Below, in pieces: positions 3,301 through 32,000 of a DNA stretch of 32,000 nucleotides (position 1 is the stretch's first letter; every line of letters begins with the position of its first letter). The notes under the pieces are model-generated. The model was given only the letters and a program-made list of their open reading frames with translations. It had not been told where the DNA came from and made no database searches. Source of the DNA: Halomicronema hongdechloris C2206 (GTDB lineage: Bacteria; Cyanobacteriota; Cyanobacteriia; Phormidesmidales; Phormidesmidaceae); NCBI RefSeq assembly GCF_002075285.3, contig NZ_CP021983.2, positions 1,320,001 to 1,352,000 of the forward strand, in the 5' to 3' direction. The position numbers were made by a program, and so were the translations under genes.

Positions 3301-4812
3301 CTACATGTAGAAAGAGTACTCAGAACGTACAGTCATTTCTGGTCCCACTTCTTTCAAAACATCTCCGACACGTTGAGAGAAGGCAAGCGTGATAGGAACT
3401 CCATCTGAAAAGGCAGCGTTGTTGACATTCATCTTAGTGAGTGCCAGCAGTTCAGTGGCAAGCTCACGTGGGCCACTATCCCCATGTCGCTCAATAATTG
3501 CCCAAGGCTCGGGAACATGAACACCAGGATACGTCTCAAAGTATGGTGTAAATCCGTGTGTGTAGATAATGGGAAGAGAGTCTTCAATCAGGGCATACGT
3601 GCCTCTAATTGGCGGATACTTTCCCTCGCGAGCTAGACGGATATCACTTTTATTCAGTGTTAACAGATCGATGCTCGCATCTGGGTTGACGGTCTCGATG
3701 CCCTCCATAAAACCATCGAGTTCATTGTATGCAGTATGTTCCTTCCCCCAATACCGAGAAGACTTGTGAATTACAACCCTTCGGGGAGGCAACCGTCTGA
3801 TTCTTTTGTACTCATTCAAGGTGTTGGTGATTAGGTTACACGCTTCTTCCCTTTTCAGATGAGGGGTTCGTCCATATTCGCTGCTATCCCATTCAAACGG
3901 GTCACCCCGCAGAATAATCCCCTGCCCCAGATAGTCAAATGCCTGGGCCACGCCACTCCGCAGGATATTTCTGCCTCTTTCATCCTCGGTATTGTAAAAA
4001 GAGATGCCAATGTAACACGTATCTTCCTCAAGTCCATGACCCTTCCAAGGAACACCACCGCATTTGAAATAAAGTGCAGTAGCGAAGTTCCAGGCTCGCG
4101 TTGCTTTGTCCTGTAGGCTTTTGTCTTTGCCAGTTAAAGTAGGTTCCAGAAATATCTGAATGGGAACCCCCCATTTCATAGACCGTGCTTTCAAAATTCT
4201 TCGTAAATTCAAATAATTGCCGTTGGGCAACTTTGCTGAGGAAGCTTTGTCAAATAAGACTTTGGGAATTGCAACCAGAATGACGCTAGGATGCGGTGAA
4301 GCTGTGGCTATCTGACTAATATGATCGGATATTAGGTCAGCTGCTTTCTCAACGCGTTCGATATGGCTTTCTGTATCGGCGATCGCTTTTGCTTCCCTCT
4401 CTTGAAAAGTAGAGACCCAACGATCACTAGTAACAATTTCTGAAGCGAAGTTCGTGGTACTGTTTATGCCAATAAAATCAGGGGATAGCCCCTTTACTAA
4501 AATATCGCGTTTTGCAAGTTCCTCTTGCTCAATACTTTCTTCAGAGTCATCATCAACTTCCCAGTTTTCTGTTTTAGTTCTATCTGTCTCAATGTAGGTT
4601 TCACACACACTGATCCATTGCTGACAGGCTTCACATGTCGCGCGTGTTCCTACAATACCGACCTTGATCTTGTCTGGGTGAAGCGCTGGATCCGTTCTCC
4701 CAAATGGTCCATGTTCTACAATTCCCGTCTTTTTATCCGGATGCAGAAAGGAATTATTGAACTCCAAATGAGGCTCTGAAATTAGCTCAATGGTAATGTT
4801 CATTATCGTCAC
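3301..4812 (-). CDS. Short prokaryotic Argonaute (MID-PIWI, catalytically inactive), ~500 aa
   Basis: Length and PIWI-type C-terminal sequence fit a short pAgo (RGTYALIEDSLPIIYTHGFTPYFETYPGVHVPEPWAIIERHG...LALTKMNVNNAAFSDGVPITLAFSQRVGDVL). Positions that carry catalytic Asp in active PIWI read YIGISFY and VVIHKSSRY. The track start is a GTG at 4812. An ATG at 4803 (MNITIELI...) is an equally plausible start. Confidence 0.8.
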   Translation of the reverse strand: MTIMNITIELISEPHLEFNNSFLHPDKKTGIVEHGPFGRTDPALHPDKIKVGIVGTRATCEACQQWISVCETYIETDRTKTENWEVDDDSEESIEQEELAKRDILVKGLSPDFIGINSTTNFASEIVTSDRWVSTFQEREAKAIADTESHIERVEKAADLISDHISQIATASPHPSVILVAIPKVLFDKASSAKLPNGNYLNLRRILKARSMKWGVPIQIFLEPTLTGKDKSLQDKATRAWNFATALYFKCGGVPWKGHGLEEDTCYIGISFYNTEDERGRNILRSGVAQAFDYLGQGIILRGDPFEWDSSEYGRTPHLKREEACNLITNTLNEYKRIRRLPPRRVVIHKSSRYWGKEHTAYNELDGFMEGIETVNPDASIDLLTLNKSDIRLAREGKYPPIRGTYALIEDSLPIIYTHGFTPYFETYPGVHVPEPWAIIERHGDSGPRELATELLALTKMNVNNAAFSDGVPITLAFSQRVGDVLKEVGPEMTVRSEYSFYM

Positions 4813-4817
4813 TTTAA

Positions 4818-6128
4818 CTAGATAGAACGAATGCCAAAGGGTGCTAATACACCATCAGGCATTCCTTTAAGACGTAAGATTTCATAGCCGTCGAGTTTCA
4901 TTGAAAACTCAGAGGCTCCATCGGAAAAGATGAAACACCAAAAGAGTATGTTGTTGAGGTAGTGATTGTTATATTCGCGACTCCGATGCCTTGTCGAATA
5001 AGCTCCGACTTTCTTAGATGGCCAAGCTGTTACTCCATCACTTGAGAAATACAGCTCCGGACGAAGAACAATACCCCAGGTTTGACCGTATCGCTGAAAC
5101 CGCGCTGATAAAGCCGAATGCTTAAAAAATTTATCTTTTCCATACTCGTAATATTTAGCCACTGTCCGACACGGAGATCGCTTAGTCCTGATACTCTTCC
5201 AGATTTTTTTAACCGGTTCTTCTTTAGTTAGCCCATCACTGTAGTAAAAGCGTTTATATTTTTGGTGATAGCGTAAGCCTTTATCAATTAGGTACTTTTG
5301 AAGTAAACCGTTGAGAAGTCGTCGTGCAGTATAATCGGCATCAGGATCTTGCTCAAGCCAATCATCAAATGGAAAAGTTTCAACTTCAGAATCAATGATG
5401 TTTGTAAAAGCATTTTTTGACTTTGATGGATCTGTAAGTGTTGTAAGAAGACCATCCTTATAATTGTAGGGTGGAATAAATCCAAATAAGCGCTGGTGAA
5501 ACTGTGCTCTCTTTTCCGGAATAACTGTACTTACAAAAACTGCCTGCGGTAGCGTAATAGCTTCTATAAAATTAGGAAAGAGGATTTCTGAACTTGAGGT
5601 ATCGACACGCTCAGGAGCAGTCTGACAAAGTTCATACAAAGCGTTTAATGCTGTTTCATTGAAGCAGTCAGTATTTTTATCAAAAGCAATGCGGCAAGGC
5701 TCTTCAAATGCATCAGGATTTTCTTTGAGATAGGCTTGAACATCCTTCCAATAAAGTTGGTCGTCTTTTGGATGGTATACCACATAAATCATAGGGACAT
5801 TCAGATTTCCCCAGTAAACTAAGTCTTTCTTATTTACTGGGGATTCAAATGTTTCTTCTTGGTTGCTTCTAATATAATGCTGACCAGACTTTGATTGGAC
5901 CTTTATGATTTTTCCAGTGCCGATAGAACCATTCCCTTCAGTCCTGGGAAGACATAGTTCAATCTCTCCATCGACACCAATGTCATCCTTTTCTTGCTCC
6001 CGCCAAATACAACCCATCTGGTGAACAATCACCGATATGCGGTCAAGGCCGTGCCATTCTGAGATTTTTGATTTTGGAACAATTTTACTGATGGATTCAG
6101 ATGCCACTTTTTGAGAGTTGAAATTCAT
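4818..6128 (-). CDS. DUF4365 (DREN-type PD-(D/E)xK nuclease) fused to an APAZ-like region; effector partner of the short pAgo
   Basis: The N-terminus reads DDIGVDGEIEL...GKIIKVQSKSG, which matches the D...E.E...QxK arrangement typical of DUF4365. The protein is 436 aa. Its stop is 5 nt upstream of the pAgo GTG and 14 nt upstream of the ATG at 4803. Confidence 0.7.
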   Translation of the reverse strand: MNFNSQKVASESISKIVPKSKISEWHGLDRISVIVHQMGCIWREQEKDDIGVDGEIELCLPRTEGNGSIGTGKIIKVQSKSGQHYIRSNQEETFESPVNKKDLVYWGNLNVPMIYVVYHPKDDQLYWKDVQAYLKENPDAFEEPCRIAFDKNTDCFNETALNALYELCQTAPERVDTSSSEILFPNFIEAITLPQAVFVSTVIPEKRAQFHQRLFGFIPPYNYKDGLLTTLTDPSKSKNAFTNIIDSEVETFPFDDWLEQDPDADYTARRLLNGLLQKYLIDKGLRYHQKYKRFYYSDGLTKEEPVKKIWKSIRTKRSPCRTVAKYYEYGKDKFFKHSALSARFQRYGQTWGIVLRPELYFSSDGVTAWPSKKVGAYSTRHRSREYNNHYLNNILFWCFIFSDGASEFSMKLDGYEILRLKGMPDGVLAPFGIRSI

Positions 6129-6604: not shown

Positions 6605-6991
6605 TCAAGGGTATCCAAGCAGATCGAGCTGCTGGATAAAGCGGAAGTCGCTTTGGTTTTTGCTGAGGAGCGGAATTTGATTGCCGATCGCGGTTGCTGC
6701 AATCAGGGCATCAGCGATCAAAAGACCATGGCTGAGGAAATATTCTTGCAGTAGCTGGGTGGCAATCTCGCTGCTCTGGCTAGTGAGCGTCAGCACCTGA
6801 AATTGAGCCAGGAAGCGGTTGAGGGCTTGCAGTTCGGTTTTGTTGCGGCATCCGACGGTTAACTCCATGACCGTGATGGTAGAAACGGTCAGGGTGGAGG
6901 CTCGACTCTCGTTGGCCAGGCGCTCTACGGCGATCGCATCGTCGTTGGCAACATCAATAAGAATGTCTGTATCGACCAAAATTTGAGCCAT
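6605..6991 (-). CDS. vapC: PIN-domain ribonuclease toxin (VapC-like)
   Basis: Translation from the ATG at 6991 gives MAQILVDTDILIDV... (acidic DTD at the N-terminus), then ...TVMELTVG... and ...IADALIAATAI..., which is the typical PIN layout. This start lies 1 nt after the antitoxin stop. Confidence 0.75.
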   Translation of the reverse strand: MAQILVDTDILIDVANDDAIAVERLANESRASTLTVSTITVMELTVGCRNKTELQALNRFLAQFQVLTLTSQSSEIATQLLQEYFLSHGLLIADALIAATAIGNQIPLLSKNQSDFRFIQQLDLLGYP

Positions 6992-6992
6992 A

Positions 6993-7229
6993 CTAGCTGC
7001 GCCAGTGCTGTTGCCGAATTTGCCGTACCCAGGCGGTACTGTCTGCCATTTCAGGCCGATCGCTCCACATCCCGACAAAGGGTTCGTTTTCGAGGTTCAG
7101 AGGTTGGTGAGTTGTGGGCTCGGGTGAAGAATAGCGCTGCTTCAAGAAGGCAACGAAATCTACCACGAGCTGTTGGGCGGTGGTAGGCAGGGTAGAAATG
7201 TCGTCTCTCAGTTGCTCAAATTCGGGCAT
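6993..7229 (-). CDS. vapB: Antitoxin partner of the PIN toxin (DUF2281-like, 78 aa)
   Basis: A small ORF directly upstream of the PIN gene and abutting it. Its tail, EPFVGMWSDRPEMADSTAWVRQIRQQHW, is of the kind common in cyanobacterial antitoxins. Confidence 0.6.
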   Translation of the reverse strand: MPEFEQLRDDISTLPTTAQQLVVDFVAFLKQRYSSPEPTTHQPLNLENEPFVGMWSDRPEMADSTAWVRQIRQQHWRS

Positions 7230-7285
7230 GGGTCTTCTCCGGGGCTATGTTCTAGGTAAAACAATTTCAACCATCTATTAGCACT

Positions 7286-7316
7286 CTACTCACTACTCCT
7301 CTCTTCGCTACTCACG
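7286..7316. repeat. Half copy of the family B element, forming the last codons and the stop of MTase-1
   Basis: The sequence is ctactcactactcctctcttcgctactcacg. On the minus strand it encodes ...VSSEERSSE followed by the stop. Confidence 0.55.
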
Positions 7317-10300
7317 ATTTCTGACTCCCTCGGCGGATGCGCTACGCGAGGGTCGGCGGGGGGTGGGTCGAGGAGGGTTGGGTAGGGTTGGCCGCTGGCT
7401 ATGGCAGTAGCCATGGCGTCGTAGATTTGAAGGATGGTGTCTTTGGTGCGGTAGTGGCCGTGGGCTTTTTCGTCTTTGCGTTTGACTATGGGGAAGGTTT
7501 CCATGATGTAGTCAACGTCGTCGCGCTGGATGCCGTAGAGGTGGAAGTAGGCGGCGTCGAGTTCGCAGCGGAGTAGAAAGCGGCGGTCTTCGTCCCATTT
7601 GAAGGGTGGGCCTTCGTAGCCGCAATCTTGGGCAAAGGGTTGAAGGTCCCAAGCAGTGTATGTGAGTTCTAAAACATTCCCTGAAATAAAATCCTTCTGT
7701 TGCTGACTGTAAATTTGTGGTGGGACGATAGGTAACTGTTTGACAATATAAAAGTTTAGGTTCCCCCCACTTGCTTTTTGCTTGGCAACATAATCAAGAA
7801 CAAAAGAGTTGAGATTTGCGACTAGAAGACATGTTTCGAGAGGCTTTGTTTGAGAAAAGATCAGAGGCATTGAGTTTCCAACGCCAATCTTTGGAATAAT
7901 CGTGAAGGCGACGCTTCTAGCATCCGCAACAGCACTAATAGCATTGCGAAAACCAACTAACCATTCATGCTTCCAAAAATCAGGAATTTTTTCTTCAACA
8001 ACCTTTGATGGAACCCAATAGCGAGGCATAAAGTTCCATAATGGATTCTTCAAGTCTCCTTTAGTTGGTTTGTTCGTTTTTGCTCGTGTTCCATACATCT
8101 GATTCTCTGGAATTCCTGTGAATGTGGCTCCACGATGATTAAAAATTTGCGCAAATTTGGATTCGTATAAAGGTAAATATGTTGTTCCAGAACTAACGAA
8201 TGAATTGCTCTCAATACTAAATCTTTCCGCTTTTAACTGGCCTTGCGTTCGGAAGTGGCTGGAATCATTTGTCATATGCAGCATTCCAAGAAAAGAAACG
8301 CTCCAAGGATTATCATATGGATTCTCATTTAGTAAAACTGGAATCTTGGAATATATAGATTTAATCCTTTTTGCATCTCCGGCAGAAATAAAGATAGGAA
8401 GATTTTGGGTGTTTGGGTTTATCCGCAGAATATCTTCTCGACTTAGAACATATACTCTTTCTTTTTCCTTTAAATGATCAACCTGCCAAGCCTGAGCAGC
8501 CAAATGAAATTCTTCATCAAAGGACTTTGATATTGTCAGCAGAGAAAATGAAAATGTGCTCTCTGTACCATTAAAAAGGTAGCCTCTATTAGTAAAATCG
8601 AAGAAGCTAACCAATGTACCTTTTTTGATTATTTCTTGAATAAAGACTTTGTTTGAATCGTCGGTGGCTATTCCAGAAGGAACGACACATCCTAAATAGC
8701 TTTTACTTCCAATAATGAGATACATCGTTTCGGTGAAGATGGTATAAGTGTTAATATCTCCACGTCCACATAGGGGGTATCGCCCTGAGTCGCGGACTAT
8801 TAAACTTTCTCCTTCTGCTTGCCGACAAGCAGCTTTGAATAGATGAAATAATTCAGGATCTTCTTGCTCTAAATCAGCAATCTTCCTACGCCGAGTCGCG
8901 GCGTTTCTAGCTTTTGATATATCTGGTCTTCGAGATGCAAACCATTCTTTTTCCTGAATCTTGATGCGTTCCCAGGGTGGATTCCCCAGCACCACATCAA
9001 ATCCCCCATCCCAACCAGGTTCAAGGCTTTCCTCATCCTCCGATTCCCGACTCTCGACTCCCGACTCCCCATTCCTTACCTGAAATACATCCGGAAACGC
9101 CAAGTGCCAATGGAAAAACTGGTACTGATCCCTCAGTCGCTCCACCTCATCCCGCATCCACTTATCCACACTATGGGGATTCCGCTCAATTCGCCGGAAC
9201 ACTTCTTCGGTGATGGGGTAGGGAAAACCAGAAGGGGGTGTAGAGCGAGTAGAGGAGTAGGGAGTAGCGAGTAGTGATTCTTGAGAACCTTCTACTCCTC
9301 CATTCGCTATTCCTCTATTCGCTTCCTCACCAGAAGGAGGGCGCTTGAGCCAGACAAAGGCTGCACACCAGGCATCCGCCCAAAACCGGCTGAATAGGTA
9401 AGGCGTAGACTGCACCATCGCCTCATACTGCTGCCGCTTGCGCTGCACCCCGGCATAGTCATCATCCGAAATGTCATCCACCTGGGCCATGCTCGTCGCC
9501 AGATCGCCCAGGCGCTCCCACGGTTGCAGGTCTGGCGTCAGCAGACTCAATTGCCCCTTACGCTCCTCTTTGTTCTGCTTCTTGTACTTGCTGCAATAGG
9601 CTTTGTCGTCCCCCTCAATAGGCTTAAACGCATCATCGGGAATGCCCTGACGCAGCAATGCCGGAGTTGCCCCCAGCAGACTGTTGCCACACTGAATATG
9701 GTGATCCAAAAACGACAGCGGCTTCCCTGGCTCTAGCGCCTCCATCCACAGGGCCACCTTACACAGCTCCACCGCCATCGGGTTCACATCCACCCCATAA
9801 ATGCAGCGGCCAATGACATCCCGCAGCGCCGTCTGGGTGGCCTCTGGGGCAGGTTCTTCATCGCCCGTGCGCACAAACGCCAACCGCTTTGCCAGCCGAT
9901 GGGCGGCGGCAATTAAGAAATGGCCACTCCCGCAGGCCGGGTCGCAGATTTTGAGGTTGAGCAGAGCGGTTTCGGCATCCAGATCATCCGCTGCGACTGC
10001 TGAAGAGATCGCCTCATCCACGACCGGATCTAATGCCGAATCGAGCAGGCACTGCACCAGACTTTCAGGAGTGTAGTAGCTGCCGGTGGTCTTACGTTCA
10101 TTGCCGCTGGCGGTCTTGAGGGAAAAGGTGCCGGTGCTGATATTCAGTTCGGGGTGTAGCTCCAGCAGAGACTCATAAACACTGCCCAACTCCTCCGATT
10201 GCAGATTTTTGTAGTCCACCGGACGACGACCGTGCTTATCCAGAATGAAAGCCAGGGCACGGATAGCGTCGAGGAGATCGGTATTTGCGATTTGGCAAAA

Positions 10301-11557
10301 CTCGCCCTCACCCCCAGCCCCTCTCCCGTTCTGGGAGAGGGGAGTTTGAGAGTCTTGTCCCCCTTCTCCCAAATTGGGAGAAGGGGTTAGGGGATGAGGG
10401 GAATTCCCCAACAAATCCGCTACGGCATCGCTCGACCAGAGGAAACTGCCCAAAGCCGGTAGCGCCAGTTCAGGGCAGCCGTGCTCACTGCCCAGCTTTT
10501 CCATCACCAGGCGCAGACCGTGAAACAGGTCGCTGTGGCGGGTGCCCCGACGCTTTTCTGCCAGAGTGCGCAAGCGAGCGGTGGAGTAGTAGAGGGTGTA
10601 GCGATCCTTCGCGGCGGGTGTAGCGTTGGGATCGAGCAGCAGTTCCCGGTCTTCGGCGACGAACAGAAACAGCAGGCGGTAGACCAGCCGCAGTAGTTGG
10701 CGGTAGTAGTCTTGGGTTGCCAGCTCCCCAGACTGGAGCTTTTGCCGCAAGGTACGGTTAGCCGAGTGGGTCAAAAAGCCCTGACCCAGGGATGCGATCG
10801 CAGTCTCCACCCCATCTCGCAGGGCCTCCAAAGCTCGCTTGCCCTGATCGTTCGCCGTCTTCGACCAGACCTCAAGCCAGCACTGTTCGGGCTTTTCCGC
10901 TTCTACCCGTGACTGGTGACACAGCAGCCACAGCAACACAAAGTCGGCATAGACCTCCCCGGCCATCATGGCTTCCAGGTCAAACTCCACATAAGCCTGG
11001 CGGGTAAGGCTGGCATTGTCTCGCAGAATCCGCAGCCGTCGCCCATTGGAGACAAACGCCCACAGGTGATCATCCGAACGGTTCAAAAACTCCTGCACCA
11101 GACTGTGGGGACTGCTACGGGCGGCTCCGGCAACCCCAGCGGTGCGCTTGTCCAGATCTACGCGGTAGCCCACCAGATGAATCGGCGTGTTTTGCCAGAG
11201 ATGGGAGATGGGGTAAGCCTTGCCCTCAATTTCGATGGCGCGGGTGGTGGTCAGCCGTCCGTAGCCCAGCTCCTGGAAAAGCGGCAAGAGGATGCGATCG
11301 CGGGTCACTTTGGTGGCTGCGTCAGACTCGGGCAGCCTTTCTAACGCCCCTTGAAAGCTAGCCCAGGCTCCACGCAAACGACTCCAGGAACGGTTGATGG
11401 CTTCGTTGAGCTTTTCCCCTTCCAGCAGGTGATAAGCGGCTGGGGTGAGTCCGTCGAGGTCGTTATCGTTATCCACAATCCGCTGCAGCAGGTCGGTGGG
11501 GAGAATGGCCCCTTCGGCTCGGACGGTGGTGAAGATGTTTTTGGCTCGAACTTTCAT
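7286..11557 (-). CDS. Large N6-adenine DNA methyltransferase, PglX/DrmMI/Eco57I-like gamma class (1423 aa), here called MTase-1
   Basis: Motifs read [20 protein letters not shown] (motif I), [22 protein letters not shown] and [11 protein letters not shown] (motif IV NPPW, nt 8972-8983). It is paralogous to the next gene along almost its whole length. Confidence 0.85.
9045..9070. repeat. Short tandem heptamer repeat (tcccgac tctcgac tcccgac tcccc) inside MTase-1
   Basis: Read directly from the sequence. It encodes part of [11 protein letters not shown] just upstream of motif IV. MTase-2 has no equivalent sequence. Confidence 0.6.
9241..9326. repeat. MITE-like palindromic element, family B (gcgagtag / ctactc type), in frame inside MTase-1
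   Basis: The sequence reads gcgagtagaggagtagggagtagcgagtagtga...ctactcctccattcgctattcctctattcgcttcc. It translates as [30 protein letters not shown], which is absent from MTase-2. Confidence 0.7.
10304..10401. repeat. MITE-like palindromic element, family A (GC-rich, two internal hairpins), in frame inside MTase-1
   Basis: The terminal inverted repeats are gccctcaccc...ggggatgagggg. The internal hairpins are cccctctccc-gttct-gggagagggg and cccttctccc-aaatt-gggagaagggg. The element translates as [34 protein letters not shown], which is absent at the aligned position of MTase-2. Confidence 0.75.
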
Positions 11558-11619
11558 AACAGAGGAGATGGTGCGAGAGCGGCAGACTGGTGGCAGACGA
11601 TCCAGAGTGGCGAAGGGGA

Positions 11620-11654
11620 GCCCTCACCCTAGCCCTCTCCCGAGGGGAGAGAGG
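11620..11654. repeat. Half copy of the family A element at the 3' end of MTase-2
   Basis: The sequence gccctcaccctagccctctcccgaggggagagagg matches the left half of the 12215 copy almost exactly. It contains the MTase-2 stop codon (11629-11631). Confidence 0.7.
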
Positions 11655-14600
11655 ACAAGAGATTCGGCGGTAGGCCAAGATTACTATGGTAGGCAACCCC
11701 TGACTTCATTGCTGCTGCTAGCTGATCATAGATTCGCAGGATGCGGTCCTTGGTCTGGAAGCTGCCGAACTTTTGCCGGTCTTTACGCTTCACAATAGGA
11801 AAACTCTCCAGCATGAAGTCCACATCCTCTCGCTGGATGCTGTAGAGGTGGAAGAACGCTGCATCGAGTTCAGCCTGGAGCCATGAGCGGCGATCGGGAT
11901 TCCAGGGGAAGGGCGCGGCCTCGTAGCCACAGTCTTTCGCGAAACCCTGTAAATCCCAGGCGGTGTAGGTCAGTTCCAGAACCCGAGGTAAAATCCAGTC
12001 TTCTACGGTAAGGGTGGTATCCCAGGGACAGGGCTGCTGATAGGTAGAGGGAGGCAGGGTCGGTAGTTGGCGAACGATGTAGTCAGACAGATGATTGCCG
12101 GGGGTGCTCTGGCGGCAGAAGAAGTCGAAGCAGAAGCTGTTCCAGTTAGCGAGCAGACTGAGCAGGGTGCTGATTTCTGAATGGGAAGAGTTTTTTGGCT
12201 CAGTTGCCTCTGTCGCCCTCACCCTAGCCCTCTCCTGTGGGGAGAGGGAACTGGAGGTGGATTGGCTCCCCTCTCCCAGAGGTAGAGGGGTTGGGGGTGA
12301 GGGAGGGTTGTAGTCGTCCAAAAACACCACCCGAATGCTGCATAATACCGCTGTTTTCGGCAGAACGCAGGCAATCATGGTGCGGGTGTTGGTGGCGCTG
12401 GTGACATCCTTAAACCCCATCAGCCATTGGTAGGGGTAGCCCTTGGGGATTCGCTGAGCTGTGTCCTGGGGAGAGGCCCAATAACGGGACTGGGCCAGGA
12501 AGTAGGGATCGGTGCGCGCTTCATCGGAAATAGCGATGCTGACGCCAGTGCGAAACATGTTTTTGTCGGTAATACCGGCTGAGCCTTCCCGATGGTTGAA
12601 GCTGCTGATCATGCGGGCTTCGTAGCAGCGGATGAGGTCCGTCTGATCGGGGTCAACGGAGGTGGCAGGCTTGAGCAGGCCGATATCGGCTGTCTGACTG
12701 AAAAGTCCCTGGGTGATGCGTAGCTGCCAGCGATCGCCCTGGTGATCTGACTGCCCCAGCACGGGAATGGTCTGGTAGACCTGCCTGGTAATGGCAAATT
12801 CCCGTTGTGATCGGAAGGTGAGACAGGTCTTGGTGCCGGGGTTGAGCAAGTTAATGTCGTCGAGGGTGAGATGGATGTGGCGATCGCTCTGAGCCAAATC
12901 TTCGATGCGGTGGGCGAAGAACACAAAGTCGGCTTGCTCCATGGGTTGCTGACTACCGGAGAGGGTCATCAGGGCAAACCGCATCCGGGAGTCTACGGCG
13001 GGGAAGAAGATTTTGGCCCGGTTCTCAAAGTCGTAGTAGCTGACCAGAGCCTTCGACGCCATCAGATCCTGGAAGAAATATTTGGTGGTATCGGCAGTGG
13101 CCATACTGGAGGGCACAATGCAGCCGAGCCGTCCGTTAGGCTGCAGCAGTAGGCGGTTGATTTCGGCAAAAATAGCAAAGGTATTGATGTCGCCCCGACC
13201 ACAGAGGGGATACTTGCCTGAATGGTGGATGAAGTGGCTTTCCCCATCAGACTGGCGGCAGCGCTCTATGAACTGAAGGTAGAGATAGGGATCTTCCGTC
13301 TTGAGGGCCTGAATCTTCCGCTTTCGTTCCGTCGCATTCACGGCATTGGAAATATCGGGGCGATGGGCAGCAAACCATTCTCGCTCCTGGACTTTGATAC
13401 GCTCCCAGGGAGTATTGCCCAACTCCACATCAAAGCCGCCAGACCATCCAGCTTGTTCGTTTTCAACGGCTTCAGCTTGTTTGGGAACACGAAAAATATG
13501 GGCAAAGGCAACATGCCAATGGAAGAAATGGTACTGAGCTTGGAGGCTTTCTACCTCTCCCCAGAGCCAATCAGCCGCATTGTAGGGATTCTGCTTAATC
13601 TTGCGGAACACTTCTTCCGTCAGCGCATAGTCAAGTTCTGGCGTTTTGCGCCAAACAAAGGCAGCACACCAGCTGTCGGCTCGAAATCGGCTGAAGCGGT
13701 ACTCGATGGAAGCGAGAAGTTCTTGGTATTTCCGTTGCTTGAGCTGTACCTGGGCGATGGATTCATCGGGGATACCATCCAGCTCGGCCATCTGAGCAGC
13801 TAGTTCTTCAAGCTGTTGCCAGGGTTGATGTTCTGGGGCATAGGCGGCCACATCCTCCAGCCATCCCCAGGGGCGTGTGGAAGGATCGACTAGAGTGAGC
13901 TGGGCTTGCTCGCGTTCCCGTTTGTTTTGACGTTTGAGGTCGCGGCAGAGAGCTTTGTCGTCCCCTCGGATGGGCTTAAAGGCATCATCGGGAATGCCAC
14001 TGGCCATCAGAGCAGGGGTGGCCCCAATCAGAGAATTGCCCCATTGAATATGGTGTTCCAGGAAGGGCAGCGGTTTCCCCGGTTCCATAGCCTCCATCCA
14101 CAGGGCCACCTTACACAGCTCTACCGCCATACGGTTCACGTCTACCCCATAGATGCAGCGGCTGATGACCTGGCGCAGGGCGGTGCGGACGGCATCCAGC
14201 CCTGGCTCTTCTTCTCCAGTGCGAAGGGTAGCTAATCGCTTGGCCATGCGCTGGGCCGCAGCGGTTAGGAAGTGGCCGCTACCGCAGGCGGTGTCACAAA
14301 TTTTGAGGTTGAGAATGGCGGCTTCTGGGTCTGGCTGGCGAGCAGCCTTGTCTAGAACTGGATCCAGGGTGGTTTGGAGCAGGGTCTGAACCAGGCTTTC
14401 GGGGGTGTAGTAGCAGCCGGTGGTCTTACGGCTATTGCCCTCGGCGGTCTTAAGCTTGAAAGTTCCGGCATCAATGTTGAGTTGGGGATGCAGCTCCAGC
14501 AAGGATTCGTAGATGCTTCCCAGCTCGCGGGATTGGAGGTTTTTGTAGTCTACGGGGCGTCTGCCGTTGCGATCGCAGATGAACGCCAGCGCCCGAATCG

Positions 14601-15777
14601 TTTCCAGTAAGGCTGAGTTGGCGAGTTGGCAGTCGTCAAGTGCAGGAGTGGCCTCGTTCGACCACAGGAAACTGCCCAAAGCGGGAAGCCCTAATGCGGG
14701 GCACCCCTCATGCCCCAAATGCTGCATGACAACCTGAAGCCCCTGGTAAAGGTCATGGTGACGGGTCCCACGATGGCGATCGGCTAGGGAGCGCAGACGA
14801 TTGACGGAGTAGTAGCGCTGATATCTTTCCTTAGCTTCGGATGAAGCAGCGGGGTCTAGCAAAACATCCCGATCTTCAACCACAAACAGAAATAGCAAAC
14901 GGTAAACCAGCCGCCTGAGCTGGTGGTTATATTCCTGAGCCGACAGTACTCCAGTTTGCAGCAGCCGACGCAACTCCTGATTCGCAGGGTGGGATAGGAA
15001 TCCCTGCCCTAGCGTCGAGATGGCGACTTCTACCCCTTTGCGGAGTTGCTCCAGTGCCCGCGTGCCTTGGGAGTCCGCAACCTGAGACCACTTTTCCAAC
15101 CAGCACCTGCTAGGCGACTCTGATTCTACCCGCGATTGATGACACAGCAGCCAGAGCAGCACGAAATCAGCGTAGACTTCACCGGCCATCATGGCTTCCA
15201 GGTCGAACTCGACGTAGGCTTGCCGGGTCAAGCTGGCGTTGTCACGCAGGATGCGAAGTCTATGGCCATTGGCAAGGAAGGCCCAGAGATGCTGGTTGGA
15301 GCGATTAAGTAGCTCTTGCACCAGGCTATGGGGGCTACTTTTAGCCGCACCAGCAATCCCGGCGGAGCGTTTATCCAGGTCTACTCGGTAGCCTACGAGA
15401 TGAATAGGCGTATGGTGCCAGCCGTGGGAGATGGTATAGCGTTTGCCACCTACTTCGATCTCTGGGGCGGGGGGCAGGCGACCGTAGCCTAGCTCTTGAA
15501 ATAGCGGGAGTAGAAATTTTTCACGGGTCAAGCGGGTAGCGGCATCGTCTAAGGAGAGTTGGGTCAGGGCATGTTGGAAGTTGACCCAGGCACCACGCAG
15601 TCTACTCCAGGAGCGGTTGATGGCTTCGTTGATGCGATCGCCTTCCAGCAGGTGGAATGATTTGGCATCCAGCCCATCCAGGTCTTTATCTCCACTCACA
15701 ATCCGCTGGAGCAGGTCACTGGGGAGAATGGCTCCTTCTGAACGGACAGTGGTGAAGATGTTCCTGGAATGGCGCAT
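11629..15777 (-). CDS. Large N6-adenine DNA methyltransferase paralog (about 1382 aa from the ATG at 15777), here called MTase-2, with non-canonical motifs I and IV
   Basis: Same architecture as MTase-1: [42 protein letters not shown] and ELGNTPWERIK (nt 13405-13416). The track start is a TTG at 15783. The ATG at 15777 gives MRHSRNIFTTV, parallel to [12 protein letters not shown] in MTase-1. Confidence 0.85.
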   Translation of the reverse strand: MRHSRNIFTTVRSEGAILPSDLLQRIVSGDKDLDGLDAKSFHLLEGDRINEAINRSWSRLRGAWVNFQHALTQLSLDDAATRLTREKFLLPLFQELGYGRLPPAPEIEVGGKRYTISHGWHHTPIHLVGYRVDLDKRSAGIAGAAKSSPHSLVQELLNRSNQHLWAFLANGHRLRILRDNASLTRQAYVEFDLEAMMAGEVYADFVLLWLLCHQSRVESESPSRCWLEKWSQVADSQGTRALEQLRKGVEVAISTLGQGFLSHPANQELRRLLQTGVLSAQEYNHQLRRLVYRLLFLFVVEDRDVLLDPAASSEAKERYQRYYSVNRLRSLADRHRGTRHHDLYQGLQVVMQHLGHEGCPALGLPALGSFLWSNEATPALDDCQLANSALLETIRALAFICDRNGRRPVDYKNLQSRELGSIYESLLELHPQLNIDAGTFKLKTAEGNSRKTTGCYYTPESLVQTLLQTTLDPVLDKAARQPDPEAAILNLKICDTACGSGHFLTAAAQRMAKRLATLRTGEEEPGLDAVRTALRQVISRCIYGVDVNRMAVELCKVALWMEAMEPGKPLPFLEHHIQWGNSLIGATPALMASGIPDDAFKPIRGDDKALCRDLKRQNKREREQAQLTLVDPSTRPWGWLEDVAAYAPEHQPWQQLEELAAQMAELDGIPDESIAQVQLKQRKYQELLASIEYRFSRFRADSWCAAFVWRKTPELDYALTEEVFRKIKQNPYNAADWLWGEVESLQAQYHFFHWHVAFAHIFRVPKQAEAVENEQAGWSGGFDVELGNTPWERIKVQEREWFAAHRPDISNAVNATERKRKIQALKTEDPYLYLQFIERCRQSDGESHFIHHSGKYPLCGRGDINTFAIFAEINRLLLQPNGRLGCIVPSSMATADTTKYFFQDLMASKALVSYYDFENRAKIFFPAVDSRMRFALMTLSGSQQPMEQADFVFFAHRIEDLAQSDRHIHLTLDDINLLNPGTKTCLTFRSQREFAITRQVYQTIPVLGQSDHQGDRWQLRITQGLFSQTADIGLLKPATSVDPDQTDLIRCYEARMISSFNHREGSAGITDKNMFRTGVSIAISDEARTDPYFLAQSRYWASPQDTAQRIPKGYPYQWLMGFKDVTSATNTRTMIACVLPKTAVLCSIRVVFLDDYNPPSPPTPLPLGEGSQSTSSSLSPQERARVRATEATEPKNSSHSEISTLLSLLANWNSFCFDFFCRQSTPGNHLSDYIVRQLPTLPPSTYQQPCPWDTTLTVEDWILPRVLELTYTAWDLQGFAKDCGYEAAPFPWNPDRRSWLQAELDAAFFHLYSIQREDVDFMLESFPIVKRKDRQKFGSFQTKDRILRIYDQLAAAMKSGVAYHSNLGLPPNLLSSLPSGEG
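12215..12303. repeat. MITE-like palindromic element, family A, in frame inside MTase-2
   Basis: The sequence reads gccctcaccctagccctctcctgtggggagaggg...cccctctcccagaggtagaggggttgggggtgaggg. It translates as PPSPPTPLPLGEGSQSTSSSLSPQERARVRA, which is absent at the aligned position of MTase-1. Confidence 0.75.
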
Positions 15778-15793
15778 TATCAAACTCTAAACG

Positions 15794-18670
15794 CTAAGTT
15801 TTCGGGACTGGCATGAACATATAGATACCTAAAACATCAGGGGGGAGTTGTGGCTCCACTCGATAGCGAACACCCTTGAGTTTGGCTGCGCTGCGGACTC
15901 GGCGATGAGCCTCAAGTAAATCATTCCCTCGCTGCTGGGCTACAGTTTCAAGGTGGGGACTGAGATGGTCGAATTGATCGATTACTTTCTGTAGAAACGT
16001 TGTGGCCTGGTCGGCACTAATGTTGCCGTCCGGAGTGGCCGTCAGGAGCTTCTCTGCCTGACCAGGCTCAAGCCATTCAGCCTTTTCCGGAGAGCCCGTA
16101 AAGGCTAGTATTTGGCAGTCTTCTGCCAGGAGCGGGTTTTCCTCGTCTCCCTGCTTGGCAATGATGTGGAAACGAAAACGGGTCAGGAGTAGCGTAGTGC
16201 GGCGGCTTACCTGATTAGTCCGAATCACCCCACAACGACGGGCCACACTGTCCACCATGGGATCCAGAGCCGTATCCATAACGTGGGTAGCCAGACCTTC
16301 CACGATGGGATGGGTCCGGTTCAGGTAAAGCTGACCATCCTGAATGGGGAGTTCGAACCGAGCCTGGAAAGATTCCTGCCCGCCAATGGCATCCTTCAGG
16401 GCTTGGGGCGCTTCCGATAGATCAAACGCTAACGCCTTGGTCGGTGTTTCGCTGACAACTGCTTGATGAACTTTAAAGGCAGCTTCGGTAAATGAAGCGA
16501 CATCAACACTAGAACCAATGGCTGAACGAATTGCCTGAAGCTCGCGAACTACATCTTCAACCTTGATGGTTTCCTGGGCAAACATGGTGCGCGATCGCTT
16601 CTCTCGTTCTGAGGCGGCTTCCCACTGGCTAAAGAACTGGTCTTTCTGGGGTTTGAAGAAGTCTTGGTCAAAGAGAGAAAGCTGGTCAGAGACATTAGAG
16701 GACTGTTCTCGCAGCAATAGCCCTTCAAAGATGGCTTCAACCACCTGATCCGTGTCCACGGGAACGGGGACTGAAATCCCCAGGGAGCTGCGGATGGAAC
16801 GGTGTTTACGAATGAGGACATCGAGAACGATGCCATCAATCTGGTTATCGACGCCGTAGTAGGTCAGCACCCGCACTTTGTCCTGGGGTTGTCCATAACG
16901 GTCTACTCGACCTTCTCGCTGCTCATGGCGGGTCGGGTTCCAGGACAGGTCGTAGTGAATGACGGCGTTGAAGTAGGCTTGTAGGTTGATCCCTTCACTG
17001 AGGCAGTCAGTACAGACCAGAACCCGTTGGGGAGACTCGGCCAATTGCTCTACCCGCTCTTCTCGCTCGGCCGGGGGCAGGGTGCCGGTGACAGCGACTA
17101 CCTCGACATTACGCAGGCTGCTCCTGAGTTCTTCCGCCACATATTCAGCCGTGGGAATAAAACGGCAGAAGATAATGGGCTGAAATCCGTTTTTCAGAAA
17201 GTCCTTAACCAGGGTGATGATTTTCTGGAGTTTGGCATCCTTACTGCCTTTGAGGTTTTCTGCCTCACGAGCCATTTGTTTGAGGCGAGTAGAGGAGTAG
17301 CGAGTAGTGAGTAGGGGGGCTTCTTCTACTCCTCTATTCACTACCTCGCTATTCGCTTCCAGTTCGCTGATATCCGCTCCAGGCACAATATCAATGCCTT
17401 CCTTGGCATCGTCATCCATCAAGTCCATCACCGTGCGGCGACCGACTTCGTCAGCTTCTTCGGGGGTTTCGGTATCGAGGGTGTCGGCGCGGTTGCGTAG
17501 GGTAGTTGCCGCCGCCGCAGGGCTGGAAGCCAGTGACCGTAACAGCCCCAGGGCCGACCACCACCGCACTCGTTGCCGATGGCGGCTGTTGGCATCAGGA
17601 GACTGAACGGTTTCGCGAGCGTAATTCAGAATGCGGTCAAATAACTTTTTGTATTCGGGAGATAGGGAGTAGGTTTCGTCTGCCTCCAGCCTTTCGGGGA
17701 AGGGGGTATCGGCATCCAGGTAACTGCGAATATCACCCCGACGGCGCTGGACGAAATGAGCCGCCACCTGGCGACGGATGGGTTCGTTTTCTTTACCGCC
17801 CAGTTCGTCGGGCAAATCGGCAAAGTCAGGATTGAGCAAAGCTAGCAGGGACCGGAAGGCGGCTTCTTTACCGCTGTGGGGAGTGGCTGTCACCAGAATG
17901 AGGTGGCGATCGGGCGCATCGGCTAAGCCTTTGATAAGTTGATGTCGCTGGTGCTTACCGCCTCGACCTTCCCCAGCAAAGGCGCAGGTATGGGCTTCGT
18001 CTACAATCACCAGCTCGGGGCAGGTACGCAGAAATTCATCCCGGCGATGCTCTGATTTAATGAAGTCGGTCGAGACAATGACGTAGGCATAGAGGTCAAA
18101 GAGTGACTGCCCCAGACGGCAGTTGCGCTCCAGGCGGGTAGCGGTACTGGGTAGAACCAACTCGGCATCAATATGGAATTTGCCCTTCAGCTCTGACTGC
18201 CACTGCTCGGCCAAGTGAGGGGGACAAAGTACGGCGAGGCGATCGACTTCGCCGCGATCCATGAGCTCTTTGGCAACCAGGCAGGCTTCGACGGTTTTAC
18301 CGATACCCACGTCATCGGCAATAAGCAGGCGCACGGGCTCTAGCTTAAGCGCCATGAGTAACGGCACGAGCTGATAGGGGCGAGGCTCGACGGCTAATTT
18401 GGCGAAGGATCGGAAAGGGCCAGCACTGGAACGGAAGCCGAGGCGCACAGCATCTCGCAACATGCGGCAAGAGCGATAGTCGCCTAGTTTTTTAGGATCG
18501 GGTAGCTCGAACTGGGCGGGTTCAACAGGCTCTAGGGGGAGAAAGATGCCGGTGACTTCATCTTCGGTGCCGCCGAGGGGGCGCAGGATCAGCATCTCCT
18601 CGGTGGATTCGGGAAGGACGACCCACTCGCGATCTCGAGCTTTGACGAGCGAACCAACGGCAAAAGTCAT
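15794..18670 (-). CDS. SNF2-family (DrmD/RapA-like) SF2 helicase/translocase, 958 aa
   Basis: Motifs read LIADDVGIGKTVEA (motif I), VIVDEAHTC (motif II DEAH), ILVTATPHSGK (motif III) and HYDLSWNPTRHEQREGRVDRYGQ (motifs V and VI). Confidence 0.85.
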   Translation of the reverse strand: MTFAVGSLVKARDREWVVLPESTEEMLILRPLGGTEDEVTGIFLPLEPVEPAQFELPDPKKLGDYRSCRMLRDAVRLGFRSSAGPFRSFAKLAVEPRPYQLVPLLMALKLEPVRLLIADDVGIGKTVEACLVAKELMDRGEVDRLAVLCPPHLAEQWQSELKGKFHIDAELVLPSTATRLERNCRLGQSLFDLYAYVIVSTDFIKSEHRRDEFLRTCPELVIVDEAHTCAFAGEGRGGKHQRHQLIKGLADAPDRHLILVTATPHSGKEAAFRSLLALLNPDFADLPDELGGKENEPIRRQVAAHFVQRRRGDIRSYLDADTPFPERLEADETYSLSPEYKKLFDRILNYARETVQSPDANSRHRQRVRWWSALGLLRSLASSPAAAATTLRNRADTLDTETPEEADEVGRRTVMDLMDDDAKEGIDIVPGADISELEANSEVVNRGVEEAPLLTTRYSSTRLKQMAREAENLKGSKDAKLQKIITLVKDFLKNGFQPIIFCRFIPTAEYVAEELRSSLRNVEVVAVTGTLPPAEREERVEQLAESPQRVLVCTDCLSEGINLQAYFNAVIHYDLSWNPTRHEQREGRVDRYGQPQDKVRVLTYYGVDNQIDGIVLDVLIRKHRSIRSSLGISVPVPVDTDQVVEAIFEGLLLREQSSNVSDQLSLFDQDFFKPQKDQFFSQWEAASEREKRSRTMFAQETIKVEDVVRELQAIRSAIGSSVDVASFTEAAFKVHQAVVSETPTKALAFDLSEAPQALKDAIGGQESFQARFELPIQDGQLYLNRTHPIVEGLATHVMDTALDPMVDSVARRCGVIRTNQVSRRTTLLLTRFRFHIIAKQGDEENPLLAEDCQILAFTGSPEKAEWLEPGQAEKLLTATPDGNISADQATTFLQKVIDQFDHLSPHLETVAQQRGNDLLEAHRRVRSAAKLKGVRYRVEPQLPPDVLGIYMFMPVPKT
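17285..17360. repeat. MITE-like palindromic element, family B, in frame inside the 958-aa SNF2 helicase
   Basis: The sequence reads gcgagtagaggagtagcgagtagtgagtaggggggcttcttctactcctctattcactacctcgctattcgcttcc. It shares long identical blocks with the 9241 copy. Confidence 0.7.
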
Positions 18671-28763: not shown

Positions 28764-28796
28764 GGCTCTGCAGGAATGAGTATGCTGGTGTAGTAG

Positions 28797-30765: not shown

Positions 30766-32000
30766 TTAGTTGAGAAATTTGCTAGGTTTTCCAACCCAGC
30801 AAATGAACAGTTCATCCCTTGCCCGCGTAAGGCTTACGTACAGAAGCTGCCTCTCCCTAGCCAGTACATCCTTCTGTAGCTGAGTATCCTTAGTCCTATT
30901 AACGAGATATTTCAGCGGCACCTGGTCATCCGATACATTCACTACAAACACCGCCTTAAACTCCAACCCCTTAGCCCGGTGCATCGTCCCCGCATTCACT
31001 GCCGACTCCCGTGCTCCCCCCTTCCGCAGGTTATGGCACTTGAGCCCAGCTTCCTTCAATGCACTCTCAAGCTGAGTAATCGCCTTGTTAGTACGAGCAA
31101 AAATAGCCACCTCTTCCGGGGCTAACCCCTCCTGGGTAATTGCTTGGATTTGCTTCACCAAGAACTCCTGTTGTTGCTCCTGGGTATTAAATCCCTTCAT
31201 GACGGGCTTGGGTCCACTCAAAAGACTGACCGTTCCCTTACGGCTCTCCTGTCCGCCATCCATGTCATCGCTCTGGTGACCCAGCATGGTATCGGCGAAC
31301 TGTCGAATTTGTTCCGTAGTGCGGTAGTTGATCCGGAGAATATGAGACCGTCCCCGCACATCCACCCCAAGCGCTTTGAGGCTAAACGGGGTGCTGTAAA
31401 TCCGCTGTCCTCCATCGCCTACCAGAGTGAGAGAATCATCCCCGTCTCCCGCCAATGCTGCCAGCAGCATAATCTCCTGGGGGCGCAGGTCCTGAAGTTC
31501 ATCTACGATGACGGCATCGAATGGACTTTCAACCTTCCCCGTGGTGACTAACTCCCTAGCTAAACGGCAAATGGAGGGGTAATCCATGCAACCCTTCTCA
31601 TTCAAGGTTTCATACACCCGCTGAAAAATCTGCCAGACCTGCTTTCGTCCCTTAACCGTTAGCGGAAACCCTCGACCTGTGCGGTTAGCACTGCGGTAGT
31701 CGTCCCAGGTGGTAACACCCTGGTCCTGAATGACCGTTTCCCATTCAGTCTTCAGCAGGTCGGGTTCTAGGGGACAGATACCAGGATGGTAATACTCATC
31801 GATAAGTTTCCAAATCTCGTCGTTATTGATGGGATAGAGATCTGAATTCGCTGTTTTGGCTAAAGCTAGCCCCTGGCTGTGAACCGTCGTTACCGTAATG
31901 CGCGATCGCTCCTCTGAGGTACATAGCAGCTCTAGGTTGTGCTCGATGTTTTCACACAGGGTCGATACATAGCTGGTCAAAAAGACCCGCTTACCCTGCC
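30766..32000 (-). CDS. UvrD/Rep-like SF1 helicase, C-terminal ~410 aa (5' end beyond the window)
   Basis: Motifs read AVIVDELQDL (motif II), LVGDGGQRIY (III), LRINYRTTEQI (IV), GTMHRAKGLEFKAVFV (V) and LLYVSLTRARDEL (VI). The frame stays open from 31980 to position 32000. Confidence 0.8.
   Translation of the reverse strand, partial: QGKRVFLTSYVSTLCENIEHNLELLCTSEERSRITVTTVHSQGLALAKTANSDLYPINNDEIWKLIDEYYHPGICPLEPDLLKTEWETVIQDQGVTTWDDYRSANRTGRGFPLTVKGRKQVWQIFQRVYETLNEKGCMDYPSICRLARELVTTGKVESPFDAVIVDELQDLRPQEIMLLAALAGDGDDSLTLVGDGGQRIYSTPFSLKALGVDVRGRSHILRINYRTTEQIRQFADTMLGHQSDDMDGGQESRKGTVSLLSGPKPVMKGFNTQEQQQEFLVKQIQAITQEGLAPEEVAIFARTNKAITQLESALKEAGLKCHNLRKGGARESAVNAGTMHRAKGLEFKAVFVVNVSDDQVPLKYLVNRTKDTQLQKDVLARERQLLYVSLTRARDELFICWVGKPSKFLN

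Follow-up and report, generated by a model that had tools for sequence, protein, structure and literature searches.

The stretch analysed here, 32,000 nucleotides (nt) from the cyanobacterium Halomicronema hongdechloris C2206 (contig NZ_CP021983.2, positions 1,320,001 to 1,352,000; hereafter the window), encodes on its minus strand a large DNA methyltransferase, MTase-1, whose gene is a mosaic in which a low-GC cassette of ~1.3 kb is set into a GC-rich backbone. MTase-1 scores above the Pfam thresholds for Eco57I (PF07669, 66.2 bits, cut-off 25.3) and N6_Mtase (PF02384, 35.5 bits, cut-off 20.4), its best PADLOC model is DrmMI (PDLC02643, E 7.7e-69), and its motif I (xDPxxGxGxF) precedes its motif IV (NPPW/Y/F) in the order expected of the class. 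A search with the whole protein recovered, besides the window's own product, a large family spread across many phyla, every invariant residue of which is retained in MTase-1. No Pfam nuclease family matched MTase-1, the match to the Type IIG models of PADLOC was confined to the methyltransferase part, the Pfam family MmeI_Mtase scored 27.4 bits (cut-off 27), and a sequence search of the PDB gave no significant relative (best E 0.078). The gene and its parts are as follows:

7286..11557, minus strand: MTase-1, an open reading frame (ORF) of 1423 amino acids (aa); gamma-class N6-adenine DNA methyltransferase, PglX/DrmMI/ArmB-like; mosaic gene.
8954..11557, minus strand: GC-rich N-terminal backbone, codons 1-868, with the N-terminal domain and methyltransferase motifs I-IV.
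9917..9943, minus strand: motif I, S-adenosylmethionine binding, DPACGSGHF (aa 539-547 of the translation), aligning with the same motif in PglX 8c45.
8972..8983, minus strand: motif IV, NPPW, catalytic, aa 859-862; proposed 5' recombination anchor, with near-perfect identity to relatives up to NPPW and collapse thereafter.
7625..8953, minus strand: low-GC cassette, codons 869-1311 as delimited by GC content at third codon positions (GC3); 7670-8938 by lost homology to the relative P0122.
8489..8953, minus strand: cassette part 1, aa 869-1023, comprising a helical insertion along with catalytic motifs V-VIII, placed by the strand and helix order of an AlphaFold2 (AF2) model.
7853..8488, minus strand: cassette part 2, aa ~1024-1235, putative target-recognition domain and most variable stretch; approximate limits.
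7673..7852, minus strand: cassette part 3, aa 1236-1295, linker with a type-specific block, helical in the model.
7289..7672, minus strand: GC-rich, conserved helical C-terminal domain, 96-99% identical to relatives; proposed 3' recombination anchor.

The composition of the gene changes sharply at both ends of the cassette. GC content in 200-nt windows is 0.50-0.63 at 8900-11600, 0.345-0.44 at 7600-8999 and 0.53-0.59 at 7200-7699, while GC3 in 40-codon windows stays at ~0.65-0.70 to codon ~840, falls to 0.20-0.40 between codons ~860 and ~1300 and then rises to 0.65-0.80. Averaged by segment, the N-terminal backbone has a GC content of 0.58 and a GC3 of ~0.65, the cassette 0.39 and 0.31, and the C-terminal flank 0.58 and 0.68; third codon positions drop most strongly in the cassette, and the GC content of first codon positions (GC1) falls too. 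A GC3 model with two breakpoints improved the log-likelihood (lnL) by 79.4, against a maximum of 10.3 among 100 permutations; one local change-point follows codon 868, at window 8953 (2-lnL support range, codons 840-874), the other follows codon 1311, at window 7624 (support range, codons 1297-1320), and the loss of nucleotide homology to close relatives sets the junctions at 8938-8970 and ~7669-7675. The first-pass annotation, which had been made from the letters of this stretch, had placed an abrupt step near 8970 and 7660, and the fall in GC3 from ~0.66 to 0.31 between ~8953 and ~7625 reproduces it in the sliding windows at essentially the same breakpoints; its base counts (39/60 G+C in 10501-10560 and 18/60 in 8161-8220) are exact, and the NPPW codons and the start of the conserved C-terminal block, ELTYTAWDL, lie at 8972-8983 and 7640-7669, as it had read them. 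The backbone of MTase-1 (GC3 0.65-0.68) resembles ordinary genes of the window (kinase, 0.64; PIN, 0.61; insertion sequence, 0.62-0.66), and it is the cassette that is the outlier.

Four metagenomic relatives (P0122, P0123, P0126 and P0127) are 94-99% identical to MTase-1 over residues 1-735, 83-99% over residues 781-862 and 96-99% over residues 1296-1400, but just 25-41% over residues 869-1295; another, P0133, has only the first ~360 and last ~130 residues in common with MTase-1. Nucleotide homology (~92%) to all four ends at nt 2588-2618 of the gene and resumes at nt 3883-3889, and in the junction alignments identity runs up to the NPPW(E) codons and comes back at ELTYTAWD. Against these relatives the N-terminal backbone has a nonsynonymous divergence (dN) of 0.04-0.06 and a synonymous divergence (dS) of 0.36-0.60, and the flanks overall have dN 0.01-0.06, dS 0.29-0.60 and a ratio of the two (omega) of 0.03-0.18, while in the cassette dN reaches 0.72-0.79 and dS is saturated. 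Close relatives thus have near-identical flanks around a non-homologous internal module, the arrangement by which allelic exchange is recognized, and six near-identical backbones bear five cassette types whose mutual identity is 30-36%.

The cassette and the flanks also differ in their relatedness to other genes. The closest cassette, that of P0124, is 62% identical at the protein level and sits on a backbone only ~80% identical to that of MTase-1; in the triplet of MTase-1, P0122 and P0124, informative sites favour P0122 by 630 to 92 in the flanks and P0124 by 352 to 153 in the cassette (Fisher p = 2.6e-96). A methyltransferase encoded on a Planktothrix agardhii plasmid is 39-45% identical to MTase-1 in the backbone and 51-66% in the cassette, which is the reverse of what vertical descent would lead one to expect, and the cassette type of the window was found on backbones 40% and 80% identical. 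The first-pass annotation had proposed to test whether the segment and its flanks differ in best-hit taxa and in history, and both differences were found: the cassette points to Gomphosphaeria, Microcoleus and Planktothrix plasmids and the flanks to Elainellaceae, Leptolyngbya and Pseudanabaenaceae, and the two parts conflict in the triplet comparison.

Transfer of a module can be traced between P0122 and P0123, in which one cassette (dS 0.007) lies on diverged scaffolds (flank dS 0.27-0.30). The two share, with four mismatches, nt 2414-3863 of P0122 (~1450 nt), a tract that extends from ~45 nt upstream of NPPW (nt 2458) to ~100 nt into the ELTYTAWDL block (ELTYTAW at nt 3766). Because both edges lie inside the conserved blocks, the tract has the form expected of homologous recombination anchored there, and so young a cassette on such old flanks is most simply read as cassette movement. 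In MTase-1, AT-ending synonymous codons found in no relative run through the 10-residue block at 7640-7669, in agreement with the GC3 change-point at codon ~1311, which places the 3' crossover of MTase-1 within that block.

A second, short dip in GC3 (codons ~741-780, window ~9218-9337) is a dispersed repeat inserted in frame and is separate from the cassette. Two repeat families of ~30-45 nt, one with a CCCTCTCCC...GGGAGAGGG palindrome, occur at 10299-10340, 11620-11661, 12215-12256 and 12268-12309 (family 1) and at 7275-7313, 9245-9326 and 17285-17360 (family 2); they lie in frame in MTase-1, MTase-2 (its tandem paralogue, see below) and a helicase gene, to which they add low-complexity peptide loops that leave the ORFs unbroken. 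The relatives P0123, P0126 and P0125 have other in-frame inserts elsewhere, some of them large and in the backbone: P0123 (locus L006 of our comparison set, 10001-14965) carries ~200 aa of low complexity between the N-terminal region and motif I, at a place where P0125 (L090, 10001-14767) carries a DUF559/Vsr-like endonuclease domain.

The contents of the cassette were read from an AF2 model that spans residues 780-1423 and was made with an alignment of 78 sequences (mean predicted local distance difference test, pLDDT, 90.2; predicted TM-score, pTM, 0.87). Foldseek matched this model to CamA, M.BseCI, BrxX/PglX and M.TaqI (E 3e-12 to 1e-9), all of them adenine methyltransferases with a recognition domain C-terminal to the catalytic domain, and the model has the predicted second half of a Rossmann-type catalytic domain followed by a predicted recognition domain. 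In gamma-class enzymes motifs V-VIII come between motif IV and the recognition domain, which is the basis of the motif names used here, and both the order of helices and strands in the model and sequence blocks that include FSFSLLT agree with a succession from motif IV through V-VIII to the recognition domain. Part 1 of the cassette is 52% identical to MTase-2. Part 2, placed after motif VIII as in M.TaqI/CamA-type folds, is 18-30% identical to MTase-2 in sliding windows and 25-32% to relatives with a near-identical backbone. Part 3 is 60-66% identical to cassettes of the same type (P0124, P0125, P0001 and the Planktothrix plasmid) and 34-38% to other types. The cassette is therefore predicted by its model to comprise the last third of the catalytic fold, the recognition domain and a helical linker. 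As for the proposal that recombination at conserved motifs replaced a specificity module, the recombination is borne out by the flanks and by P0122/P0123, while the unit exchanged is larger than had been thought, as it includes motifs V-VIII and the linker.

The window also holds a second methyltransferase of the same fold, MTase-2, which behaves quite differently:

11629..15783, minus strand: MTase-2, tandem paralogue of 1384 aa directly upstream of MTase-1; constant copy with no GC step.
13405..13416, minus strand: motif IV variant NTPW, present in every orthologue of MTase-2.
14269..14295, minus strand: motif I variant DTACGSGHF (versus DPACGSGHF), present in all orthologues.

MTase-2 likewise exceeds the Pfam thresholds for Eco57I and N6_Mtase and has DrmMI as its best PADLOC model. 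It is 51% identical to MTase-1 overall, ~70% over the first 860 residues, 18-30% over residues ~990-1230 and 62-66% at the C terminus. The low-GC segment is homologous to MTase-2 at the protein level, the 19-residue stretches that the first-pass annotation had paired do align, and the equivalent region of MTase-2 is indeed GC-rich (GC 0.50-0.60 in 200-nt windows; GC3 0.69, between 0.61 in the N-terminal and 0.66 in the C-terminal flank). Of the 209 other family members whose motif IV could be read, 208 have NPPW. The NTPW form was found only in cyanobacterial loci (L001-L003, L007 from Leptolyngbya, L008 from Egbenema, L014 from Pseudanabaenaceae, and L073), and in every case with visible context an NPPW copy lies immediately downstream of it. 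MTase-2 is collinear with its orthologues over the whole gene at ~92% nucleotide identity (cassette dN 0.03-0.07) and evolves under purifying selection (omega ~0.1). Across seven cyanobacterial loci its cassette identity (0.65-0.94) tracks that of the flanks and shows no GC offset, while the NPPW copy of the same loci has a cassette identity of 0.30-0.43 and a cassette GC3 of 0.29-0.33. By these comparisons MTase-2 is an old, constrained and separately conserved lineage rather than a recent duplicate that diverged through this swap, and it stands outside the cassette exchange, as an internal control with the same fold. The earlier suggestion that the swap gave rise to the difference between the paralogues does not hold for such a lineage, with its altered motifs I and IV. 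Gene conversion from MTase-2 was also considered as a source of the cassette and is ruled out, as the MTase-2 cassette is 36% identical and GC-rich.

Low GC3 proved to be a trait of these cassettes throughout the family. Among six close relatives, cassettes of different types have a GC3 of 0.31-0.33 on backbones of 0.50-0.71, and of 41 loci drawn from many phyla, 39 have a lower GC3 in the cassette than in the backbone (by 0.16 on average; Wilcoxon p = 5e-8), the difference of 0.35 in the window being the largest observed. The cassette type found in the window was AT-rich on all the backbones on which it was examined, its GC3 ranging from 0.16-0.19 (low-GC cyanobacteria) to 0.62 (a high-GC host). 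Sharp et al. are said to have described low silent-site GC in enterobacterial hsd genes in 1992. A similar layout is seen in the armB gene of Escherichia coli:

L102, 30527-35461: E. coli EDL933 armB, with alleles in L103-L105 of window-like architecture, an AT-rich non-homologous segment inside the backbone.

EDL933 ArmB (1644 aa) is 23% identical to MTase-1. A match to armB turned up in 526 of the 5426 complete E. coli genomes, and in 44 of these it covers <80% of the gene. Three alleles with a backbone 94-98% identical to that of EDL933 lose homology at nt 2996, 3317 or 4088, that is, 28-390 codons past the NPPW of EDL933 (nt 2911), and regain it at nt ~4340-4377. The variable part has a GC3 of 0.25 in CS5L and 0.43 in EDL933, the backbone one of 0.63-0.69 and nearby housekeeping genes one of 0.60-0.64.

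A donor for the window's cassette was sought in several collections. The protein search with the cassette gave identities of <=58%; a metagenome scan by exact peptide words gave no match, and an alignment scan of metagenomes gave eight loci with <=58% over the full cassette and one 91-residue fragment with 69%. Viral contigs gave no match, and the plasmid DNA search yielded only a 460-nt stretch, 70% identical, on Planktothrix plasmids; the same search with the N-terminal flank returned short motif-level matches in many taxa, which are uninformative on origin. The nearest cassette relatives are found in low-GC Oscillatoriales and Chroococcales, and a donor of different composition, as the first-pass annotation had supposed, is possible, although the best candidate is 62% identical and cassettes are AT-rich relative to the backbone in nearly every host. 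A module pool that is itself AT-rich fits the data better, the GC step then belonging to this class of module and not being the signature of a single donor genome.

Two helicase genes of the window bear on the system to which MTase-1 belongs:

15794..18670, minus strand: SNF2-type helicase, ArmA/DrmD/DpdE-like and GC-rich (Pfam SNF2-rel_dom and Helicase_C), directly upstream of both methyltransferases.
30766..31980, minus strand: UvrD-family helicase ORF of 404 aa (Pfam UvrD_C and UvrD-helicase), in the position of ArmD-like genes in related loci.

The SNF2-type helicase matches the PADLOC models DpdE (E 2.3e-269) and DrmD (E 1.1e-88) and is syntenic in L002, L003, L005, L006 and L090; an SNF2 (BrxHII/RapA-like) helicase thus adjoins a PglX-like methyltransferase, which is the arrangement that marks ARMADA and class 1 DISARM. 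The UvrD ORF is set apart from the methyltransferases by ~12 kb of low-GC DNA; in L005 and L090 the UvrD gene precedes the SNF2 helicase. Related loci combine an SNF2 helicase, the methyltransferase, a UvrD helicase and a DEAD/Helicase_C/DUF1998 protein of ~1800 aa, and a YprA/DUF1998 protein stands beside related methyltransferases in L005, L088 and L090. The Planktothrix plasmid locus (L099) has a helicase-related protein, the methyltransferase and a DEAD/DEAH-box helicase of 1790 aa, likely the YprA/DUF1998 counterpart, and is without a UvrD gene.

The low-GC block that separates the UvrD-like ORF from the GC-rich SNF2 helicase (18716-28541 and 30032-30748; GC3 0.33-0.38) encodes a second SNF2 helicase (903 aa, a full-length DrmD match with E = 0), a 1816-aa Sacsin/HATPase-like protein with weak TmtA matches, a 523-aa ORF that matched no family and a fragment of 238 aa with a Sacsin domain. 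The block has the look of a second system set into the first, and two SNF2 helicases in tandem occur in L003 as well. An ISL3-family transposase (28797-30031) in two overlapping ORFs (zinc-ribbon/helix-turn-helix and DDE), with a host-like GC3 of 0.62-0.66, separates this Sacsin fragment from the 523-aa ORF and may have disrupted one gene; no convincing terminal inverted repeats of the element were found. The translation of 28400-28800 gave no reading frame that would connect the two Sacsin-related ORFs. On the other side of the methyltransferases, just downstream of MTase-1, lies a PIN-domain toxin gene (6605-7078), which has the same position in L001-L004, L006 and L090 and a DUF2281-type partner in L001, L002 and L004; given this constancy of place, a toxin-antitoxin pair travels with the methyltransferase genes. 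Further along, at 3301-6128, a short prokaryotic Argonaute (pAgo; 503 aa, PADLOC pAgo E 1.6e-150) adjoins a DUF4365/restriction-endonuclease-APAZ protein (436 aa), with which it makes up a SPARDA-like short-pAgo defence pair; the GC3 of the pair is 0.34-0.42, far under that of the neighbouring native-like genes.

Taking the composition step, the recombination and the specificity role together, we assign a probability of about 0.85 to the interpretation that the cassette of MTase-1 was swapped by allelic exchange of target-recognition modules. MTase-1 would then be the specificity-carrying adenine methyltransferase of a defence module of the ARMADA/DISARM class 1 type, and its exchangeable unit would be the ~1.3 kb from just past NPPW to the start of ELTYTAWDL. 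Homologous recombination in the two flanking conserved blocks would replace the whole cassette with a non-homologous allele of the same family, each swap delivering a pre-matched unit of catalytic lobe and reader (motifs V-VIII, target-recognition domain and helical linker). Such a swap should alter the methylated DNA motif and, as the same protein directs defence in this enzyme class, with it the motif that serves to recognize foreign DNA. The cassettes would form an AT-rich pool common to several lineages, the backbone keeping the composition of its host, and the exchange would presumably be selected by phage pressure.

Several observations weigh against this interpretation or limit it. A near-identical copy of the window's own cassette was not found on another backbone, and with the 62% of P0124 as the best match, either the swap behind this allele is old or the genome that donated it has not been sampled, and no direction can be given to the transfer. 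Cassette GC3 correlates with host GC3 (r = 0.80). The limits of the recognition domain come from a predicted structure whose global TM-scores to multi-domain templates are modest (0.4-0.47), and the altered recognition sequence is deduced from the position of that domain. A YprA-family helicase (DEAD with MZB/DUF1998) was not found among the ORFs of >=150 aa in the 32-kb window; the gene may lie beyond position 32000 or be missing. The assignment to ARMADA/DISARM draws on the relatives, and the locus is termed ARMADA/DISARM-like here and not counted among the members.

Part of this evidence would also suit an old balanced polymorphism, in which ancient cassette alleles are held by frequency-dependent selection and the backbone is repeatedly overwritten by recombination or gene conversion; GC-biased conversion in the backbone and AT-biased mutation in the non-recombining cassette would then yield the GC step. 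The deep divergence of the cassette types (30-36%), the failure to find a recent donor for the window's cassette, an AT offset that is family-wide and scales with host GC3 as an in-place process would make it, and the lack of an offset in the non-swapping paralogue all accord with such a history. It is nevertheless the cassette that is the outlier, with GC3 down to 0.25 in E. coli CS5L, whereas the backbone matches ordinary genes both in the window (0.65-0.68 versus 0.61-0.66) and in E. coli (0.63-0.69 versus 0.60-0.64), and P0122 and P0123 hold a young cassette (dS 0.007) on old flanks. We consider a balanced polymorphism unlikely, and as it still needs recombination at both blocks, it would be another history of the same mechanism. 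Programmed switching within the genome, by site-specific inversion or gene conversion from silent copies, has a precedent in the inversions that target class 1 DISARM DrmMI homologues (PMC9881135), but the 32-kb window holds no second copy, inverted or direct, of either the cassette or the junctions, the only repeats being the homology to MTase-2 (direct orientation, 70-81%) and the short dispersed repeats; no invertase or integrase ORF adjoins MTase-1, and the relatives differ as fixed alleles, all of which makes such switching very improbable here.

Divergence in place under diversifying selection, with low GC arising from amino-acid make-up or relaxed codon selection and no recombination at all, could call on the concomitant drop of GC1 in the cassette and on the fast evolution of recognition domains. 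We find it scarcely credible, as third positions drop most (0.31 versus 0.66), a flank dS of only ~0.3-0.4 accompanies a cassette with no detectable nucleotide homology, the cassette has its closer kin on distant backbones and not on the near-identical ones, and the paralogue of the same fold has no GC drop. Nor do we lend appreciable weight to an assembly chimera in which two methyltransferase genes were mis-joined at conserved motifs: the junctions do lie in conserved sequence, which is prone to mis-joins, but the ORF is intact, the part from aa 780 to the C terminus, both junctions included, is predicted to fold as one protein (pLDDT 90), the source contig spans 5.58 Mb, and the same succession of backbone, cassette and backbone recurs in at least 10 independent assemblies, among them complete E. 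coli genomes and the Planktothrix plasmid.

Beyond allelic exchange in MTase-1, two linked readings can be advanced tentatively, although we regard them as doubtful: that a mobile pool of AT-rich cassettes with motifs V-VIII and recognition domain is shared across phyla, and that the constant and variable paralogues of filamentous cyanobacteria divide labour between them. If so, the pool would supply specificity to ARMADA/DISARM-type methyltransferases from cyanobacteria to E. coli, and a sharp GC3 dip past motif IV would be a general marker of the exchangeable module. The DTACGSG/NTPW copy, with its vertically inherited module, could then be a fixed-specificity or non-catalytic partner, and the swapped copy the component engaged in the arms race. 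ARMADA/DISARM-type systems are newly described; for the question of how they choose their motif, the five cassette types on near-identical backbones are a natural swap series, with junctions mapped at NPPW and ELTYTAWDL, through which cassette type could be tied to methylated motif. The family-wide AT bias offers a simple signature for locating specificity modules in raw sequence, and the constant NTPW paralogue serves as a control for the effects of swapping and raises the question of another role for the motif-altered copy.

Known restriction and defence systems provide several points of comparison. In the MmeI family, the documented changes of specificity come mainly from point changes within the recognition domain. 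For Type I HsdS and Type IIG enzymes it is established that recognition domains are replaced allelically (PMC2853133, PMC3077401, PMC3983042); Type IIG genes show allelic diversity of these domains (PMC2853133), and their reassortment in AloI-type enzymes is cited in the same source. MTase-1 resembles the Type IIG enzymes of that study in being one large methyltransferase polypeptide whose relatives have homologous flanks around a non-homologous C-terminal recognition region, read there as specificity change. It differs from them in that no nuclease domain was detected, in that the swapped unit begins right after motif IV and includes motifs V-VIII, and in its place in a helicase-rich ARMADA/DISARM-like locus with a constant paralogue adjoining. 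With Type I HsdS, known for shuffling and 'domain movement' (PMC3077401, PMC3983042, PMC3575425), it has in common the conserved blocks that flank variable modules and act as recombination sites, as well as the many module types per scaffold, the consequence in HsdS being methylome diversification; unlike HsdS, where recognition resides in two domains of a separate S subunit, MTase-1 has a single recognition module joined to its catalytic domain, and some of the catalytic fold is exchanged along with that module.

Among defence systems, the layout of the related loci is the one recently named ARMADA, which is related to class 1 DISARM (bioRxiv 10.1101/2025.09.15.676423; PMC13463889). Mutation of the ArmB NPPW abolishes defence (bioRxiv 10.1101/2025.09.15.676423), methyltransferase-dependent anti-phage activity has been demonstrated only for E. 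coli ARMADA II (10.1101/2025.09.15.676423; PMC13463889), and of the genes in the E. coli island it is armB that is reported to vary (PMC13463889). Shared with ARMADA are the SNF2 helicase followed by a PglX-like methyltransferase with NPPW, a UvrD-family ORF that may stand for the UvrD helicase, the YprA-DUF1998 helicase in relatives and the AT-rich non-homologous segment past NPPW in E. coli alleles, whereas the identity of 23% to EDL933 ArmB, the two tandem methyltransferases and two SNF2 helicases of the window and the absence of YprA from its 32 kb set the locus apart; cassette structure, breakpoints and composition are not described in the ARMADA papers (10.1101/2025.09.15.676423; PMC13463889). 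With class 1 DISARM (PMC9881135; PMC9142583) the locus shares DrmMI and DrmD as best PADLOC models and the methyltransferase as the varied component, for which programmed inversions are documented in DrmMI homologues (PMC9881135); here, by contrast, neither inverted silent copies nor a recombinase adjoining the gene were found in the window, genomes differ from one another by their alleles, and DrmA, DrmB and DrmC are absent from the window. PglX has been named as the methyltransferase and specificity factor of BREX (10.1101/2024.04.12.589231), and BREX PglX/BrxX (8c45, 9ewz) matches the predicted structure of the C-terminal half of MTase-1; PglX differs in having no significant sequence similarity to MTase-1 outside motif I (E 0.078), and no other BREX genes are present. 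Allelic exchange of recognition modules is thus already known, and the window is a well-documented case of it in an ARMADA/DISARM-like methyltransferase; what may be new are the precise junctions, the AT bias that the module shows across the family and the constant, motif-altered cyanobacterial partner.

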